DNA of 64,000 bases. It comes from Balanoglossus misakiensis (taxonomy: Eukaryota > Animalia > Hemichordata). A model generated the notes under the pieces. The model saw only the letters and a program-made list of their open reading frames with translations, made no database searches and had not been told where the DNA came from. The DNA lies in assembly GCA_040954595.2 (NCBI GenBank), contig CM082594.2, positions 11,796,985 to 11,860,984 on the forward strand, written 5' to 3'. The position numbers were made by a program, and so were the translations under genes. Numbering within the stretch: the first letter of the stretch is position 1; each line of letters opens with the position of its first letter. Below are positions 25,401 through 58,500 of the stretch, in pieces.

Positions 25401-28400
25401 ACAAGACACAATTTTAAATGACAAAGCCACCTTCACTCAGCCCACCACCATCAATTACTGAAAACAAGAAAAATTTGAGCCAGTTTTGACGGTATTGTGG
25501 AATCATATTTGCCATTTTTGACTGTTAATTTTTCATGTGTGATATTTTTTACCTTGACATACAGCTCAGCAGAAGAAAGAAAGAAATTTTACCAAAAGCA
25601 AGAAGCAGATGAAGACATTGCCAGATTTAGAGAATATAAACAACAGCAAAATTGGTTGGAAGCAGAAACAAAAAGAAAGGTACATGTACAAACAGAAAAG
25701 TCTTAATGAAAGTCAATTTACAACTTAACAAGTAGTGAAATCACTATCTGATACATGTAAAAAAATTATCACCTACTTCTATCCTTGACAAAATTATCCT
25801 AAGGCGCTAAATCAATACATTAAACAATTGCATATTATTTTAAAAATACTCTAAGCAGATTTTGCACTTTGACAGTGTTGAATCATTGAATCATATAACT
25901 TTTCAAAAAAATATATCAATATTTTATCTGTTGAATCATTTAGCTAATGACTTGGAATGAATTCTAATCTTTTACACAGGATTTAATGATGTTGAAATCT
26001 TACCAACCATTTGGTAAACCAGGTGGAGGAGCACCAGCTGACAATTACAAACGGACTAAAAATATAGCACAGATGGATTTCGATGGAAAGAATGAGGTAT
26101 GATTACTCATAATATGTTTATGTAAGTTTCTGATATTGTGGTACAGAAACATGTAGTACATGTGGGTGGTAATTCATGGGATTTCAGTTTGGATGGTTTC
26201 AGACAATTGGTCAACTTTGTATGATGGAACCGTCTGTGCTTGGAGCAAGGAACTAAGGAACTTGCAATCATGATACTATATCCTGCAGCCAAAATAGCAT
26301 CCATGTCAAACAAAGGTTTAATTCTCACACTGGAGTTTAATTAAATAATAACACATGATAGCGAGGGCAATATCACAATTTGTTGCCTGCCCAAGGGTTG
26401 GTGACCATGACCGAAATATTGATGATGCCCGAGCCGAAGGCGAGGGCATCATCAATATTTCGGTCATGGTCACCAGCCCGAGGGCAGGCAACAAATTGTG
26501 ATATTGCCCTCGCTATCATGTGTTATTTATTTTATTACACCGAACATTCACACAGCATACAAGACAATATCACACAGTCAGGATTTATATTACCACAACA
26601 GTTTAATGGCCAAACACGAAACAACAATAAACCAACAATAAACGTACTGGGCATATTTCACAAAAGATAAATACTGTCATTGTTTTTGTCCAAGAAAAAT
26701 GTTAAAATTTCCTCCTGTGATCGTTGCACCTGCAAACAAGGATGCTGCAGCTGATTTGGGTGCGGGTATATTAATATTTGGCTGGGCCACACCACTGAAA
26801 GCAGGCTGCGAAATGATGGATGAAAGTGGTGAGCGATGTGCTTGTTGTGGGGGGCTTGATGTTGCGATGGCTGCACCGTGGTCACCAGTTTCGTCAGCAG
26901 CAGATGGTGTCATTGTTGCGGATGAAAGGGTTTCTGCCATCAATTTCTTCTGCTGGATTGACGTATCCCTGACATAGGAGGAGATGCTCCCTTCGTTTCG
27001 ATGGCGGCTCACACTCATGATGTGCCTATTGTTGAAGCCGGATTCGCTAAGAAGTGTGATGGACGTGGCACGAATACAATGATTTGTGTAGCGTTGACTT
27101 AATTCTGCTGCTGCAGATATAGTGGCCATCATCGCCGATAATGTATTTTTGCCGAGTGGTTTGTTCTCGTACCACAGCGCGTCGTCACTACTGTAGTTAT
27201 CGCGTGGTCGTTGAAATAGTGCGTCGCATTTACGGTTTATCTTCGAAATATACAGTTCGTAGGTACGAACGGGGCACCGAGATAAATTGGTGGGGTTGGC
27301 ATACATGATTCCGCCCGACACACCATCGTCATCATATTGGTGGTTTTTTGTCACCTCGCTCCCAACTTGGATCACGTACTTATTCCCACGGTCGTCCGTG
27401 TTAACCTGAAAGTTTTCAGGACGGAGGTCACGCTGCCCTTCTCTACCACGGCGACAAAAATACAACATGATATCGAACCATACCTTGTGCAGAAGTAAAG
27501 TTGCGTCGGTATTCGAGCGACTGAAGTAGGTGGCTAGTTTAGCGAGATCGCCCGGGAGTATGGCCGGTTTGTGTACAACATTTCCTTTGCCCTGGCTTTT
27601 CAGTCGCTTGCAAACTGCACTAAACATCTTCCGGCTATTGGAAAACTCATCGCCATCAACTATATCGAAATTTCGGCGCATTGGTGGCTGATTGAAAAAT
27701 CGCTGAATGCCGTATCGAAGTGATTGAAGAGACTTGTTCGTATATAGTTCTCCTTTCTGAGTTCGCACTTCAGCGTAGAATGTAGTCAGGGCTGCGTCCA
27801 GAGTCGTCGCTGTGAAGGTCTCGATCTCCCGGTGACTATATCCGTACTTGGCACTGAGATAATTTCGGAAAACGGATACTGCATTGTTGGTCGCTACTCT
27901 CGTGTTTTTGCTGTCCATTTGAAGTAAAATATCATCCAGTTGAGCTGGTGTCAAATCAGCGTGTCGTTTTGAAGCCATAGTGGTGGTGCGTTAAAGGGAA
28001 AGGGTTTGTTGTGAACGACAATTTGTTGATGCGCAGAAATGGTGCGCAGAACACAAAAACAACCCAGCGGGCTATATCAGCGCACGCGACAGGGCTTTAT
28101 CAACTCTAGCCATGTTATATCACTTTTTTCTCTATGTCACGTGAGCGCGTCTCAGCCAATCACGAATACGACATAATACGTGAGGTGTAATAAAAATTCT
28201 TAAGATTAAATGACTGCCAAGCAAGCATTAGCAAGCACTGGTTAGGAAGGTCAGTGTCATATCACTGGCATATTTCGAGTGATTAAGATTCACATGAGCG
28301 TATAGTATGTTCAACTCGCATAGACACGTGGCACTGGCAGATAATTTCACTGATTTTACATTGAGGTGTTTACATTCCATTTGTTTGCAACCAAGGTTAC

Positions 28401-29689
28401 TTTTTATGTAAACAAGGTTTATGCCCTGTCACCCACCAGTACTTAGAGAAGTCAGTTATTGACGACTCCTATCAACTTGGCATTCTATTGGTCTATAAAT
28501 TGACTTCTCAGACTTGACAGGGACGCTAAAGTTGTCAATGGTGTACATGTATCTACATTGCTGAATGACCATGTTTTGAATGGAGAGCTACTTGGTGTCC
28601 ACTCTGTTTTGTTTCTTATTGTGAAGGCTTAGGGACGCAGGAAATTTGGTGAACATTTTTAGTAGCTGGAACATTTTGAAATAAAGCTGTGCAGATTTAC
28701 ATGTATGATGTACTTATTCTTGCAGACGATTTCAACTTATGAAAATCCTAATGTAAGTGAAAAAAAACACAGAATTGCATGACGCCAAAATAAAAATATG
28801 TGTGGTTCACATAACGTGGTGTTCAATATTACATTTTGGAGGGCCTGTGATCAGGCTGTGGTTTAAAGTGGGGTCTGCTGAGTACAAGAAACACACATAT
28901 TTTCTTCGCCTAAATGCATGATGGTATAACTTAATAAAAAAATTAACAGCCACGATAATTCAAAGCATGAATTTTTACGATTGCTAATTTGAAAATATCT
29001 TCCCAATACTGACCCCTGTCCAAAATGTAATCTTTCTACTTGGATGTTTGGTTTCATGTATGATGTACTTATTCTTGCAGATGATTTCAACTTATAACAA
29101 TCGTAATGTAAGTGAGAAAAACAGAATAAAATAATTTTAAACAAAAAAACAAACAAACAAACAAACAAACAGAACAGATTTCCTGAAGTTTTTTTATGTT
29201 TTATTGAAAGTAACAAACAAAAGACCCCCAAACTGCAACTTCACCATAAAAATTCACTTGTGAATCATATCCTAAATAAATATAATGACATCTGAAATTG
29301 GGAATCGATCACAAATCGAGCAATTCATGTTTTCTGTGAGAATGATAATCAACATCTGCTTTGAAAAGTGATACAGGCAGCCATTGTTACCTAATACAGA
29401 GTGATGCTTTTCGTGTTCTGTATGATGTAGTGGTTGTGGTGTTGGTGGTGGTGGTGGTGGTTACCATAGCAGACATGGGATAGTGGTGATTTTTTAGTGA
29501 TGACTGATGTGTTGCTATGGGATGGTGTTGGGTTGCTGTTCCAGTGCTAGGATACAGTGTTAAAGCAACTGCAAGAAAAATGGGAAAATTATCAACAAAT
29601 CTGTCAGTTAGAAGCTGTAGCTGTGTCATCTGAAATTGGTGAATCTTTTGCATATACAATTTTGGTTTTCTCTGTACTTCTATTGATGT

Positions 29690-52500: not shown

Positions 52501-55021
52501 AACAGCTCTTGCCTGTTGCCACCCAAGTCTTCCTTACATACATGTATCTTGGTCAAGTTCTCCTGACATTAAAAAACTCAATCGCCAATTTTCACATTAT
52601 GCAAACTCATTCAGTCAGCAGCCGTTATCCTCCCAAACTATACCTATGCCAACAAACACTCAATGTCTAACTCGCTTATCTCATAATGAACGAAGTTTTA
52701 AGCCATAAACACGCTTATCAAATTATATTGTTTTATATCATGACTGAGAACAGTAGATGCACATCAAAGCCCCCATCCCAAGGCAGAAACACCAAATCTC
52801 CATTTATCTTCTTATTCTGAGCCACCGGGAATATGAACTTGATAAGACTTTTACTCAGACAACCATGTTCTTGGAAGTATCACAACAAATATCTGTTGGA
52901 ATCCCTGTAGATCGAAATAATACAAGTTGCAAAATACGCATCGTGTGCACATATATACATACATATATTAAACTATGCTTTCTAACCATACACACTGAAA
53001 ATATTGAAAATATGCACTTGCTTTGTAGGATAAACAGAATGCAAAGAAAGTTTATGCTCCACTGTGTCATTCTACGTACTTTCTATAGTTTCCAATTTAA
53101 AGAGTAACATAATATCTAGCTGCGTTACTCGATGCTGTGGCCTTCATGAAAGGGACAACACTGAAAAATAAGAGTAATGTCTTTTCTGCAATGCTCTACT
53201 ATAGTGGAAATTGCCTTCTACAAAAATCTTACAAAAACTGGTCTTGTGTGACAGTATCTCTTAAGTAAGCCCGCATCTCTGCATTCCCATTCAGAATGAT
53301 TTGTGATGAAAGTAACACGTTATTCTAGCATTAAGTAAAGACCCTGCGGCATTTGCCTCTGTTCTCAAAGCAGTCGTTTTAGAAGGGTTCATACGTCGGT
53401 CATGAAACCCTGTCCAAGTACACCCATGGAACCACTTAACTCTGTTATCGTTCGCTAATTGCCGATTGGGAATAAATATTCAAATGTCGTATACAGTATG
53501 TGACCTGGAACTCCTCTTATACCCGTATATCTGTTCGGTTCAAGTCTTGTGTAGATTTTCAGATCAACGTATGTTTGAAGTGTTTATTATCCTCCAAAAC
53601 ATGTGCCCTTCCACAGCACTCGGTCAAATGAATCAAAATTCATGTAAGGACCGTGCAAGTTTATCAGGTACGGTATTGAATATCTGAAAGAAAACTTTTT
53701 TGAAGTTATGGACATAAAGAAGTGCAGTATCAAACTTTTATCGCCGTTAGGTTGTATCATCCAGAAAAAAGAGCTGTATATTCGAACTTATGTGCATAAA
53801 ACAACTGAAATTTTATCGATGTTTGATTTGATTATTCAGAAAAGTAAGAGCCGTATCCCTTTGAGAATCAATATCCACAATGACGTCATTGTTATCATAG
53901 AGGAATCAACGTCGTTACTGAATGAACAAGCATCTTCTCCTAGTTGAAAATCCATTCAAAAATTAAAAAAAAAGATTAAACTTGACGCCAGATTTCTGGT
54001 TGGTTGTGACTGATACACGATATCAATGCGTGTAGCAACAAAGGCAACAAAAGAAATCAGAAGTGGAACACAGATAACCTTATTTGTGCAACTCGGCCAG
54101 GACTCTGGCCGTTTCATACAGAAGTAGTTCACAACTTTCCAACTATATCTTTATTTGATTGGTTAAGCTCTTGGGGAAAGTTGTAGTACCCCTTCCCCAT
54201 ATGTCTATGTCCAACTGCACGTATGTTTTCTAGTGATACTTTTTAAACAGTAAACTTTCCGATAAGGAGAATCATGGGAACTTTGTGACCACCCAACTAT
54301 TATAGCTCCTCTGAGAAATCCTATGGTGCAATTTATAGTCGCAAAAATGGTTTGTAACACAAGGAAAACTAGGATAGCCTCGGGCACGCATCCAGTGTGT
54401 AACAATTATATATATACTTGAACGTGTCCCATATTGGGACTCGATCTTTTTAATAGATTATGGTATTTCTTTGTACTAGTGTTTCTTGGATTGAAATTGA
54501 AGTGTTATCTGTATTAACTGGAGCAAATCATTGCGAAACAATTAAGGCTCCAAACTGCCAAGTGTCAATGAAAGGAACATCATTTCATTTTGGCTTCTAC
54601 ATGCTACATGTATTTTCACGTTTCCAATGTCAAAAATCTTTCTATAAGATTCCACACAAGATATCCATTTCAAGAGTTTGTTATCCGATTCAGTTCTGAT
54701 GTGCAACTGCTGCTAAAGAAGATACAGGCAGTGTAGACCTTTTTGTCCACTACAAGTTATCATTTTAAAAAGCCCGAGGGCAAAATTCGTAATCTTGGTA
54801 AGTCTTTGAACACGCTTTTCTTCGGAACTGACGTTTCGTATTACCTATTGATAACAACGTCATGATTTTCCTACAGAACCATTTGACTAGGCATGGGATT
54901 TTCCCAATTAGCGCCCGTGTCCACATCCATAGGCTAAATTCTGAGTGGAGCAGTGTAGATTGAAAACAAAATGATCTTCAAATTGTGCATACGGTCTTCC
55001 CAAAAAGTTATATTACAAAGC

Positions 55022-55506
55022 TGTATGTATGTATGTATGTATGTATGTATGTATGTATGTATGTATGTATGTATGTATGTATGTATGTATGTATGTATGT
55101 ATGTATGTATGTATGTATGTATGTATGTATGTATGTATGTATGTATGTATGTACATGTATGTATGTATGTATGTATGTATGTATGTATGTATGTATGTAT
55201 GTATGTATGTATGTATGTATGTATGTATGTATGTATGTATGTATGTATGTATGTATGTATGTATGCATGCATGCATGTACCGGTATGTATGTATGTATGT
55301 ATGTATGTATGTATGTATGTATGTATGTATGTATGTATGTATGTATGTATGTATGTATGTATGTATGTATGTATGTATGTATGTATGTATGTATGTATGT
55401 ATGTATGTACATGTATGTATGTATGTATGTATGTATGTATGTATGTATGTATGTATGTATGTATGTATGTATGTATGTATGTATGTACCCGGTATGCATG
55501 CATGTA
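55022..55506. repeat. ~480-bp (TGTA)n microsatellite with recurring interruptions
   Basis: Directly visible; explains the six MYVC/HTYI pseudo-ORFs. Confidence 0.99.
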
Positions 55507-58500
55507 CGGTCTCAAGACATATGACAATCATATATCACAACTGGTTACAAAATGTTAATGGTAGCAAACATTGAAGTGAGTTGAGTCTACCTGTATCGCA
55601 GTTGTTCTTTATCAAATAACCCTCTGTCATAGCTTGTTATGCGAATTCATGGTACAATTGAAGTACATATGCTAGCATAATAAGGTTTAAGTGATTTCAA
55701 ATTCCCTCAAAATAATTCCATCCTCCCTAAATTGCTGGAGGGGATATAATCTTAAAAACAGGATGAAACGTTTTTTTTTTCGTTTTATATTTTTCCAAAC
55801 CAGGGCCTACGTTTGCTTCAACTAAAATACGCAACGAAATAATATTCCTCGACAGTCTAATTGTACTGTAGCCTACGGAGAGCAAGTCTCATTTGCTTGT
55901 TTTAGAAAAACAACATCTGTATCTAATTTACAGCCTGGCTTTTGCCGAGAGCATACACATTAACCTCAAATATTAACTACAAATACAGACTTCATGTGCT
56001 TTAAGAGCTAGGAAGAACATTGCGGGGTGAATTTGTTCATCTCTCAGTAGAAAAGCTCACTAAAGCTTACACCAAACTAAGGACAGGGTAATTGGGTTCT
56101 ACATCTGACGTACATGGCGGTCGATTAAAAGGAGGAAAACCTGATCCTGATAATACCCTGTAGGACACAAAATTACTGCAAAAATCACGTACGATGCCTT
56201 TTGGTACTTCCAAAGACCTCAACAAAATACCGCCGAAATAACAATGAAACATGACAATTAACAGGCTGTTTCGTTTTGCAGCAAACATCACGATATTCCA
56301 TTGTTGTTTACTGTGTAAAACTGAAAGACTGAAGTAGTCAGACCTGAACGCGTGGTAAAATCTTAGAGATAACACTTCCCAAAATTGTGCCAACAGATTT
56401 AATTACCTCATATTAATTGAGATTGACTGACCTAGCTACTAGTCGATTGATTGATTATAATGAGTTCACTGAAATTATGATATATTTCCGGGTACTACAG
56501 GTATTCAAATGTGTGCTGTGGTAACAGCAAAACACACTTAAACTATAAAGAAGAACCTTTGTTTGATGTTTTATGAAATATACGGTTTCCTCCGGGTCTA
56601 TCGATAGACAGATTTCTTTCTAGAGGGCATCAAAAACTTCAAAGATGCGCGCTTTATGAAAATGTCGCTTTCCATCTGCATATGCTGTTTTTTTGGTTTG
56701 GCGATACAAACAACATAGCGTCGAGACGTGCAAGTCGAAAAAGTTCACTGAATCACTGTTTGCTGAGCAGTGATGTCGGTATGTGTTGGAGACCTGTTAC
56801 TTCCATCCTGGATAGATGGTGCTACTGGGAATTATTAAGTGACCCTGGGCTATCGGATAGTCCATTTAAAAGGTTCACACTTTGCATATGATGAATGTGT
56901 GCAATGTGCGTTTGTGTATGGCACACAGCACCGTTACGAGTTTCCCTTACGAGTTTCAAAAGCAAACATTGACTTTCAAAACCTGCAATACTGCCATTCC
57001 ACGGATCGCTTTTATGTTTTTTTAAAGACGATAAAATATTATTCTTTGACGGATTTCTCCCTGGCGTATGTGAATGATTGTGAGTGCATAATTGTTACGT
57101 CACTCTCTGCACAGAAAGGTGATGTACTACATGTACCGGTACATCATTTGTTACACAGTACTCCATAACAGCAGTTGCCTAGCAAAATGACATAGACAAA
57201 AAGATGGTTAGTTCGTAAATTGGGTGAGGGAATGTGGGATCTATTAGGAGATAAATGAAACTCTTATCTGTACTGATTCGATACCATGCATGACATTTTC
57301 TCCTCAACATTCCCTTAAGGTCAGATGACACGGAAAACTTCATCATTGCGCATTACCGAGTATCTTTGTCATTAGTTATTGCTTTTTGTCTAATTACGTG
57401 TGGTGTTCTTCCTAATCCGATTTTAATACGAAACCTCTTTCAAACTGTGTTGCAAAATTGCTGTCACATTACGGTTATACTAATATAACGCCCCAGTAAA
57501 AGGTTTACATACCGGTACACAAACACGGGCGCGTAGTATGCGTAATATAATTAGGTTTGTAAATACAAACGCATTCTTTGCATAAATTATATGGCATCAG
57601 ACAAGTTATTCTGTGCAATCTTGTGATTAAAACAGTGTATAATACACTGAATGATGCTTTGCTGCTTTAATAAAATCACAAGTGAAAGCATATCTTACTA
57701 AGGTAAGATAAAAGGGTTGAACATGTTGGCTGCATTATGGTCGAAATCTCTTCAAAAACATCTAACATAACGATAATTTACCATCAAAGGTTACGTTTTG
57801 GACTGACCAGGCAATCTTTATTGCCTAGTTATAATCATCTTGCATAGATCCAATTCCTGGTAGGTGGTTATTAAATTGATAAAATATACCCTAGACGCAC
57901 TGCAGGTGCCGTAACTCACACTGGTGGGTTTTTTGATAATCCTTTATACTTCCTTCTCTGTGTTTTGTTTCTTAAGATGTTGGAAATGAATAGCTCAGGT
58001 CTCCGTGTTCACACTTTTTTCCATAAATCATGTTATATACAATCTCACTGGCATGATACGTCATGATCTTATCCCCTGGATATTTTCCGTGATTTCAGGC
58101 AAGGTACTTCTAGTTGTCTAACGAACCAGAATGAAAATCTTCGCAAGCTTTAGAATTCCCTTTAGGCATAGGAGCGTTTGCGAATGGTAGTTTGTTAAAA
58201 CTTTGAATGGTCCTCCGAGATTTGTTTGCTGTGAAACTGTGAATATACTCGGCAAGAAGAGCAACAACAACAATTAAGAATTTTTTTCCCGTCGAAACGA
58301 CAGTGGCAGGTGCAGATCGATACGCTAATGTCAGTATTCGCGCGCGCCATAATGGATGACTGAATATCTCAGCAAATGGAGGAAACACACAAGGCGTTTG
58401 TCGGCGTCAATGTATTAATCAAAAGGACGTGTGTGTTCCTGTCATGTTTCTTTGTGTGAATGGCTTGTATTCCTGGCAAAGATTACTTGCTAATGACTAC

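Follow-up and report, generated by a model that had tools for sequence, protein, structure and literature searches.

The classification of Cryptons is set out in PMC11872487 and PMC8869645. Animal CryptonA elements, in the passages of PMC3212892 that treat them, encode a single DUF3504-type tyrosine recombinase, have neither a GCR1_C domain nor an RT, measure about 2 kb, lack direct and terminal inverted repeats and have apparent non-autonomous derivatives. Terminal repeats are entered as 'n.d.' in all CryptonA rows there, none having been found, and they are not detectable in fungal CryptonA according to the pertinent part of PMC13465315. Some CryptonV families insert into microsatellites (PMC8869645). 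Crypton movement is described as experimentally undemonstrated, with a duplex circle assumed (PMC13565253, 2026).

Folded single-strand recombination has so far been described for bacterial IntI and XerCD (PMC5027507). The integron attC site is used by a tyrosine recombinase as a two-arm hairpin with an unequal or unpaired spacer and one preferred strand; it has just a 3-nt motif in common with the target at the crossover, and a single exchange is followed by replication (PMC5027507). The strand marks of attC are an extrahelical G and T, and the hallmarks of integrons are IntI with a dedicated attI and a cassette array, and the RYYYAAC/GTTRRRY core. The attP(+) site of CTX phage is a folded tyrosine-recombinase site akin to attC. 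It is mentioned as a folded parallel of the same kind in PMC9345347.

In DIRS-1 an internal segment near the 3' end, the internal complementary region (ICR), is complementary to both extremities of an element that carries a tyrosine recombinase together with RT and gag; the exact 88-bp ICR is used after reverse transcription (PMC7192593). Helitron2 has asymmetric TIRs, in which a short 5' terminal sequence is inverted just upstream of the 3' hairpin, with compensatory changes and without target duplication (PMC3627910). The ancient vertebrate repeats Eulor5 and Eulor6 are of the Crypton class and self-complementary, and no junction complement or mechanism is given in the descriptions on which this comparison is based (PMC5753468, PMC9710123). 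Hairpins in Crypton relics have thus already been noted.

The element reported here lies in a window, the whole stretch of DNA that was analysed, of 64,000 nucleotides from Balanoglossus misakiensis (contig CM082594.2, positions 11,796,985 to 11,860,984). It has all of the animal CryptonA features listed above, and additionally a hairpin, an internal copy of the junction, a TAW-N6-WTA target and a one-sided spacer, which are undescribed in the passages of PMC3212892 concerned. With attC it shares, at the level of sequence, the features given above, the single exchange with replication being what is proposed here. It differs from attC in being eukaryotic, in encoding the enzyme inside the mobile unit, in having many dispersed genomic targets instead of one attI, in a TAW/WTA core, in strand marks that are G·A tandems, and in being known from sequence only. 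It shares the near-3' complementary segment and the tyrosine recombinase with DIRS-1, whereas its complement on the 5' side is 10-14 nt. It shares the inverted 5' end, compensatory changes and absence of duplication with Helitron2, which differs in its HUH Rep-helicase, a small hairpin 20-30 bp from the end and the lack of an arm-spacer-arm target (PMC3627910). Among the parallels drawn in an earlier note on this DNA, attC and CTX attP are the better ones and the DIRS ICR is less apt. A full-text literature search, with Repbase, Dfam notes and subscription journals outside its scope, gave no account of such anatomy or mechanism for Cryptons; curators of repeat databases may already have noted the hairpin and asymmetric repeat.

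Element features

Copies in this genome were seen through contigs of runs X1, X2 and X3, from one sample that is possibly the window's own source, compared over 25800-28800. One X2 contig skips 26338-28190 and joins 26337 to 28191, with three letters that fit either side. Across about 1150 flanking bases it has 11 differing letters and 2 gaps, and is therefore a different allele; this empty allele could be the pre-insertion site or a clean excision. Contigs of other copies have loose ends before 26341 (14 from X1, 16 from X2) and behind 28193 (8 from X2, 1 from X3). The empty allele and the copy boundaries together define the element as shown in Table 1, with no bases duplicated or lost. Terminal direct repeats and classical TIRs are absent, the inverted copy of the 5' end being subterminal.

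Table 1. Coordinates of the element and associated features in the window
Feature	Position	Strand	Remarks
Whole CryptonA-type element	26341..28193	-	1853 bp, without target-site duplication; from empty allele and loose ends of other copies
Alternative element boundary	26338-28190		boundary slidable by 3 nt
Target half-site at element 3' end	26338..26340	+	TTA on gene strand
Spacer at element 3' end, 7 nt	26341..26347	+	outer 2 nt without partner in internal copy
Terminal hairpin	26343..26531	+	89-nt arms 26347-26435 / 26439-26527, 94% complementary; at element's 3' end
Arm 2	start 26348	+	follows 3'-end spacer
Second purine tandem	26393-94 / 26480-81	+	in hairpin stem
Hairpin apex	26431..26443	+	tandem GA·GA mismatch 26431-32 / 26442-43 and C-GAA-G triloop 26436-38
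Internal complementary segment	26517..26541	+	arm 2 complement (to 26526), 5-nt spacer 26527-26531, arm 1 complement 26532-26541
Tyrosine recombinase ORF, DUF3504	26677..27978	-	433 aa from first ATG, one exon
CCAAT-type box	28156..28161	-	32 nt inside 5' end; spacing of 32 or 42-43 in most related families
Arm 1, element 5' terminus	28184..28193	-	reverse complement of 26532-26541
Target spacer, 6 nt (28194-28199), and other half-site (28200-28202)	28194..28202	+	completes TAW-N6-WTA

The internal segment sits at the foot of the hairpin. Compared with the reverse complement of the true junction, formed by joining 28193 to 26341, it lacks 2 nt: the joined ends read arm 1-N7-arm 2 and the internal copy arm 1-N5-arm 2, in all seven families folded. 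In the window copy the spacer strands additionally carry 2 mismatches. The earlier note had given the letters and coordinates of this segment correctly. The 12-nt inverted match between 26530-26541 and 28184-28195 that it reported is exact, but the element supplies just 10 of the 12 bases, 28194-28195 being target DNA. The true left end lies six bases farther out than the note had placed it, and the right terminus is 28193. The circle junction predicted there presupposed a 6-bp direct repeat at both ends, which the empty allele rejects, and the segment, said to carry 9 extra nucleotides in its spacer, is in fact the shorter of the two.

Summed contig depth is about a hundredfold greater at both element ends than in its middle (a ratio that is not a copy number), consistent with numerous non-autonomous derivatives. 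Contigs matching the two ends, 26305-26506 and 28022-28223, greatly outnumber those matching the middle; several have shortened hairpins and other inner sequence, and these end-only contigs are probably non-autonomous families. The contigs of X1-X3, which show presence and not absence, include no listed junction 28193 to 26341, no circle and no single-stranded form.

The CCAAT-type box is a putative promoter element. Its distance from the 5' end is 32 nt in most families and 42-43 nt in two others (L076:720-770; L068:769-820), a difference of one helical turn. The element apparently lies antisense within an intron of a host gene with GT-AG bounded exons on the + strand (25980-26097; from about 29745). 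To its right the intron contains a 70-nt direct repeat (28697-28766 / 29052-29121, 91% alike). Elsewhere in the window a long TATG microsatellite (54929-55600) gives rise to spurious open frames.

Recombinase gene

The recombinase ORF is the element's sole frame of at least 120 aa. Its profile matches are PF12012 (DUF3504; E 7.6e-15, above the cut-off), Phage_integrase (3.2e-6) and, weakly, QRICH1. The catalytic residues R181, K215, H304, R307, H330 and Y339 are all present (numbering follows P0001, whose start is 4 residues ahead of the ATG). Among 42 homologues R181, H304 and R307 are invariant, and K215, H330 and Y339 occur in at least 90%; the R-H-R-Y residues are intact, unlike those of a domesticated gene. 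The nearest named relative is a protein of Ptychodera flava (79%), and further named matches come from mussels, corals, an anemone, a sea urchin and axolotl. The predicted fold has a mean pLDDT of 82, with QRICH1 and Cre as the best structural matches. Pfam gave no GCR1_C or other C-terminal domain, and the tail (371-412) has a pLDDT below 50. No RT, RNase H, gag or HUH Rep-helicase was found in the element by ORF and Pfam analysis. By the sequence features of PMC3212892 the element is an intact CryptonA-type transposon; the tree built here covers the 13 families of this comparison.

Related families and covariation

Relatives were taken from a metagenome scan as the best 80 of at least 406 loci, which with the window form 47 clusters. 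Viral contigs yielded no relatives, and prokaryote genomes one short 31% fragment on a 1.4-kb contig, which was left out. Candidate 5' ends were located by a rule, a W-T-W start 30-33 or 41-44 nt upstream of a CCAAT-type box, which yields a candidate in 50 of 81 loci; in multi-copy families the boundaries between copies agree with it. In 25 of these 50 loci (12 families) the complement of the candidate 5' end, with at most 2 mismatches, stands directly before the hairpin foot. The other 25 were left out as spurious box matches, ends of other elements, contigs ending before the hairpin, or loci with no match. A 13th family (the L042 group) was added from the boundary between copies, giving a covariation set of 13 families with 33-80% protein identity. 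The position of the internal segment is fixed independently by the 3' end in 9 of the 13; contigs of L057, L011, L013 and L035 end inside the hairpin, and their position was taken from the match, so that their scores are inflated.

The internal segment matches its own 5' end at 11.23 of 12 positions, against 7.72 of 12 for the 5' ends of other families, and none of 100,000 permutations reached the observed total. The earlier note had stated that a lack of covariation across families would refute its reading; the segment does covary with the 5' end. In columns 1-10, 126 of 130 cells are paired and 4 broken, and in 21 cells both sides deviate from the majority; the unit counted is the family and not the event. 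Compensated differences between sisters number four in L068/L076 (72% protein identity), three in L072/L035, two in window/L019 and one in L011/L013, and covariation extends to the first base (L009).

For seven loci the 5' end was also predicted from the internal segment alone. Sister copies contain two of the predicted ends, each at 11 of 12 positions (L034 in L041, L031 in L006). For L016, L005, L050 and L051 there was no within-family match in 57-463 nt of upstream DNA, which is probably too short; the L016 prediction matches the 5' end of L067 exactly, outside its cluster, and was not counted. The L052 prediction matches only with an indel. The foot of L002 is atypical. The covariation excludes a chance AT-rich origin of the match; it is not proof of pairing, since a binding arm present in two duplex copies would co-evolve too.

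Hairpin and strand asymmetry

Folded as DNA, 26330-26560 has an energy of -107.9 kcal/mol (z -20.9). The apex and second tandems are purine tandems on the + (antisense) strand only. Strand marks were counted in 18 families with a hairpin, one locus each, from a strand-neutral alignment of the arms. The antisense strand carries 99 purine·purine mismatches (93 of them G·A) against 12 pyrimidine·pyrimidine; the purine·purine excess falls on this strand in 16 of 18 families, is tied in two and is reversed in none. An apex of the form GA..C-G(N)1-2A-G..GA occurs on the antisense strand in 13 of 18 families (all but L031, L002, L080, L051 and L005) and on the other strand in 0 of 18. CGAG occurs 46 times on the antisense strand and 5 times on the other. 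G·T and A·C mismatches, 22 versus 25, have no strand bias.

Folding energies of the two strands are nearly equal (-113.7 versus -111.3 for the circle, with the sense strand better in 2 of 7), and a whole-window minimum-energy comparison did not tell the strands apart; the strand argument therefore rests on the identity of the mismatches. Tandem sheared G·A pairs in CGAG blocks and GNA loops are reported as stable DNA motifs in the relevant parts of PMC10085684 and PMC13037366, the RNA form of the motif being much less stable according to the latter. In several families tandem G·A mismatches recur every 17-19 bp of stem, about two helical turns per repeat (L009:4388-4574, L060:2061-2247, L045:2161-2348, L034:3256-3443); in the window copy the gap between tandems is 36 bp.

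Target sites

Read from the flanks, the target rule is TAW-N6-WTA, without duplication. The window's own empty site consists of TAA, six bases and TTA. Flanks were counted singly, since contigs sharing one flank differ in the other and left and right flanks cannot be paired. Among 29 distinct left flanks, A stands at -8 in 26 (p 1e-10), W at -7 in all 29 and T at -9 in 16; seven additional flanks, previously unused, have A in 6 and W in 7. Right flanks start with WTA in 17 of 20 cases. In L044 and L013, two of the three exceptions, the half-site stands at 7 nt; both are located within or beside other Crypton ends. At the element 3' ends of 11 families T, A and W occupy -10, -9 and -8 in 9, 9 and 11 cases; the target half-site is the same as this one, placed one base closer. 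With N7 at the joined ends and N5 in the internal copy against N6 in the target, both duplex sites of the element differ from the target in spacer length. In the folded strand 7 nt stand opposite 5, which leaves a 2-nt bulge next to the crossover. Unlike the CryptonV targets, neither the flanks of the window copy nor any of the 29 left and 20 right flanks counted are microsatellites.

The outcome of insertion is one-sided. In 21 left flanks the family's own 7-nt spacer never occurs (5 of 7 positions match at best), and at the 3' end the final 7 nt are constant in all six families with at least two 3' ends. The element begins with a base that is fixed in each family, whereas the right flank begins with A or T (10 and 10). 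Two comparisons of filled and empty sites show no bases gained or lost. The second set (L046 left flank, L042 right flank, empty L003/L004) has a single break without homology at -2, -1 and +1. A third, L073 against L075 (86% alike, a putative empty site), has a similar break, but its left half-site has no TAW-N6 fit. Tyrosine recombinases cut 3' of the bound arm. At a cut next to arm 1 this designates the antisense strand, and we infer that the one-sided spacer pattern is the product of that strand alone.

Some insertions are nested. In L044:1-56 the left flank is the internal arm of a related Crypton in opposite orientation, the insertion lying 2 nt inside its internal junction copy, so internal sites are usable as targets. 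One Crypton family has a hot spot of nesting about 63 nt in from its 5' end, where two other families have inserted in opposite orientations, 3 nt apart (L003:640-675; L046:2260-2323; L037:3067-3110). The left flank at L013:2285-2310 is similar to a related family's 3' end and has a 7-nt spacer, possibly a head-to-tail stack.

Proposed mechanism and alternatives

The antisense strand of the element probably folds into a recombination site for the element's own recombinase, and the reaction would be one of a folded strand with a duplex, resolved by replication. As part of the same favoured reading, the site, with its 7/5-nt spacer and G·A-marked strand, would form only when both ends have been joined. 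Once the element is an excised circle, the antisense strand across its joined ends would pair with the internal segment, giving a site composed of arm 1, a spacer of 7 nt opposite 5 nt (the 2-nt bulge just 3' of the cut) and arm 2. The recombinase would pair this site with a duplex TAW-N6-WTA and exchange the antisense strand only, at the bond beside arm 1, predicted to lie between 28193 and 26341. Resolution of the junction by replication would then keep the target spacer at the 5' end and the element spacer at the 3' end, without duplication. Since after insertion the 5' junction is a duplex arm-N6-arm, the target-like form, and the 3' end is foldable, excision would mirror integration as a reaction of the folded 3' end with the duplex 5' junction, and one daughter chromosome would retain the element. 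The arm available for excision is weak: right-flank pairing with the internal arm extends over no more than about 3 bp at the donor. The fold could form on the replication template or by cruciform extrusion. A folded single-strand substrate had been proposed in the earlier note; covariation, target anatomy and strand asymmetry support it, although the junction predicted there was wrong.

That note had also envisaged a dumbbell, in which the internal segment pairs at the donor with both antisense-strand ends at once and splints them for excision. We consider this unlikely, though it fares best among the alternatives. It would provide a full arm of 10-14 bp at excision where the flank provides about 3 bp, and is compatible with all covariation and strand evidence. 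It requires both ends, 1.6 kb apart, to be single-stranded together, and no sequence feature demands pairing before circularisation; the 5' junction, already a duplex arm-N6-arm, can react without a splint, and only the circle requires pairing of the 5' end. The dumbbell is thus possible and not required. Its single-strand chemistry is that of the favoured reading with another excision intermediate, and sequence cannot choose between them.

Slightly less likely again is a duplex circle that undergoes two strand exchanges without homology, as in Tn916, with the internal segment as a second duplex binding site and the hairpin as an accessory. This corresponds to the model proposed in print (in the part of PMC13565253 concerned); the arm-N7-arm layout of the duplex junction is acceptable, and co-evolving binding sites would covary without pairing. 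The Tn1549 integrase has been solved with circular intermediates named CI5 and CI6, so that duplex recombination is not excluded by spacers of unequal length alone. After replication, however, a pair of staggered exchanges without homology would leave either spacer at either end, against the absence of the element spacer from all 21 left flanks, and the fixed 2-nt difference, the hairpin-abutting internal copy and the one-strand G·A tandems would be left unexplained.

An RNA route with RT supplied in trans, the segment restoring and joining cDNA ends as in DIRS elements, appears improbable. The layout is shared with the DIRS ICR, on which retrotransposition depends; the cDNA of DIRS is likewise antisense and its RT acts in trans (all in the relevant parts of PMC7192593). 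The element, however, has no RT or gag, its only frame of at least 120 aa being the recombinase ORF, and its segment is 2 nt short of exact complementarity to both extremities in seven of seven families, whereas the DIRS ICR is an exact 88-bp complement. The triloops are of the DNA-type GNA form, and there is no excess of G·T over A·C. The position of the CCAAT-type box 32 nt inside the 5' end suggests transcripts lacking that end, which a complement of 10-14 nt could not restore.

A shade more improbable still is strand-biased copy-out on duplex ends, like that of bacterial SE elements, with the G·A hairpin mainly priming or protecting a single-stranded circle and not itself cleaved. SEs do circularise one strand by tyrosine recombinases (PMC9345347), and single-strand priming sites can have GNA mini-hairpins, for which SSB has little affinity (PMC13037366), as stated in the passages concerned. 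Junction-spanning pairing in a fixed 7/5 register would remain unexplained, and SEs bring 6 bp of donor flank to the new site, a kind of variable sequence not seen here.

An AT-rich match by chance is refuted: inverted matches of at least 12 nt somewhere in the stretch are unremarkable (32 of 200 base shuffles, overlapping palindromes counted), but the position here is fixed at both ends. For a 10-nt match between a terminus located by independent evidence and the site adjoining the foot of the hairpin, p is about 1e-6, and 12 further families have such a match in altered sequence.

Significance

The finding is real as a conserved feature of a known superfamily, with a site anatomy undescribed in the searched literature and a mechanism that is directly testable. 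The exact ends, the TAW-N6-WTA rule, a predicted cut bond and strand and an intact single-exon enzyme bring Crypton movement within reach of an oligonucleotide assay. On balance we think it more likely than not that animal CryptonA is a eukaryotic counterpart of an integron cassette, one that brings its own integrase and would paste a single folded strand into any duplex TAW-N6-WTA, with replication finishing the reaction. If this is true, folded single-strand recombination would extend from bacteria to animals, many hairpin-ended repeats would gain a rule for their annotation, and the enzyme would point to a compact integrase needing almost no target homology. The domesticated DUF3504 proteins ZMYM2-4, QRICH1 and KCTD1 would then descend from an enzyme that reads folded DNA.
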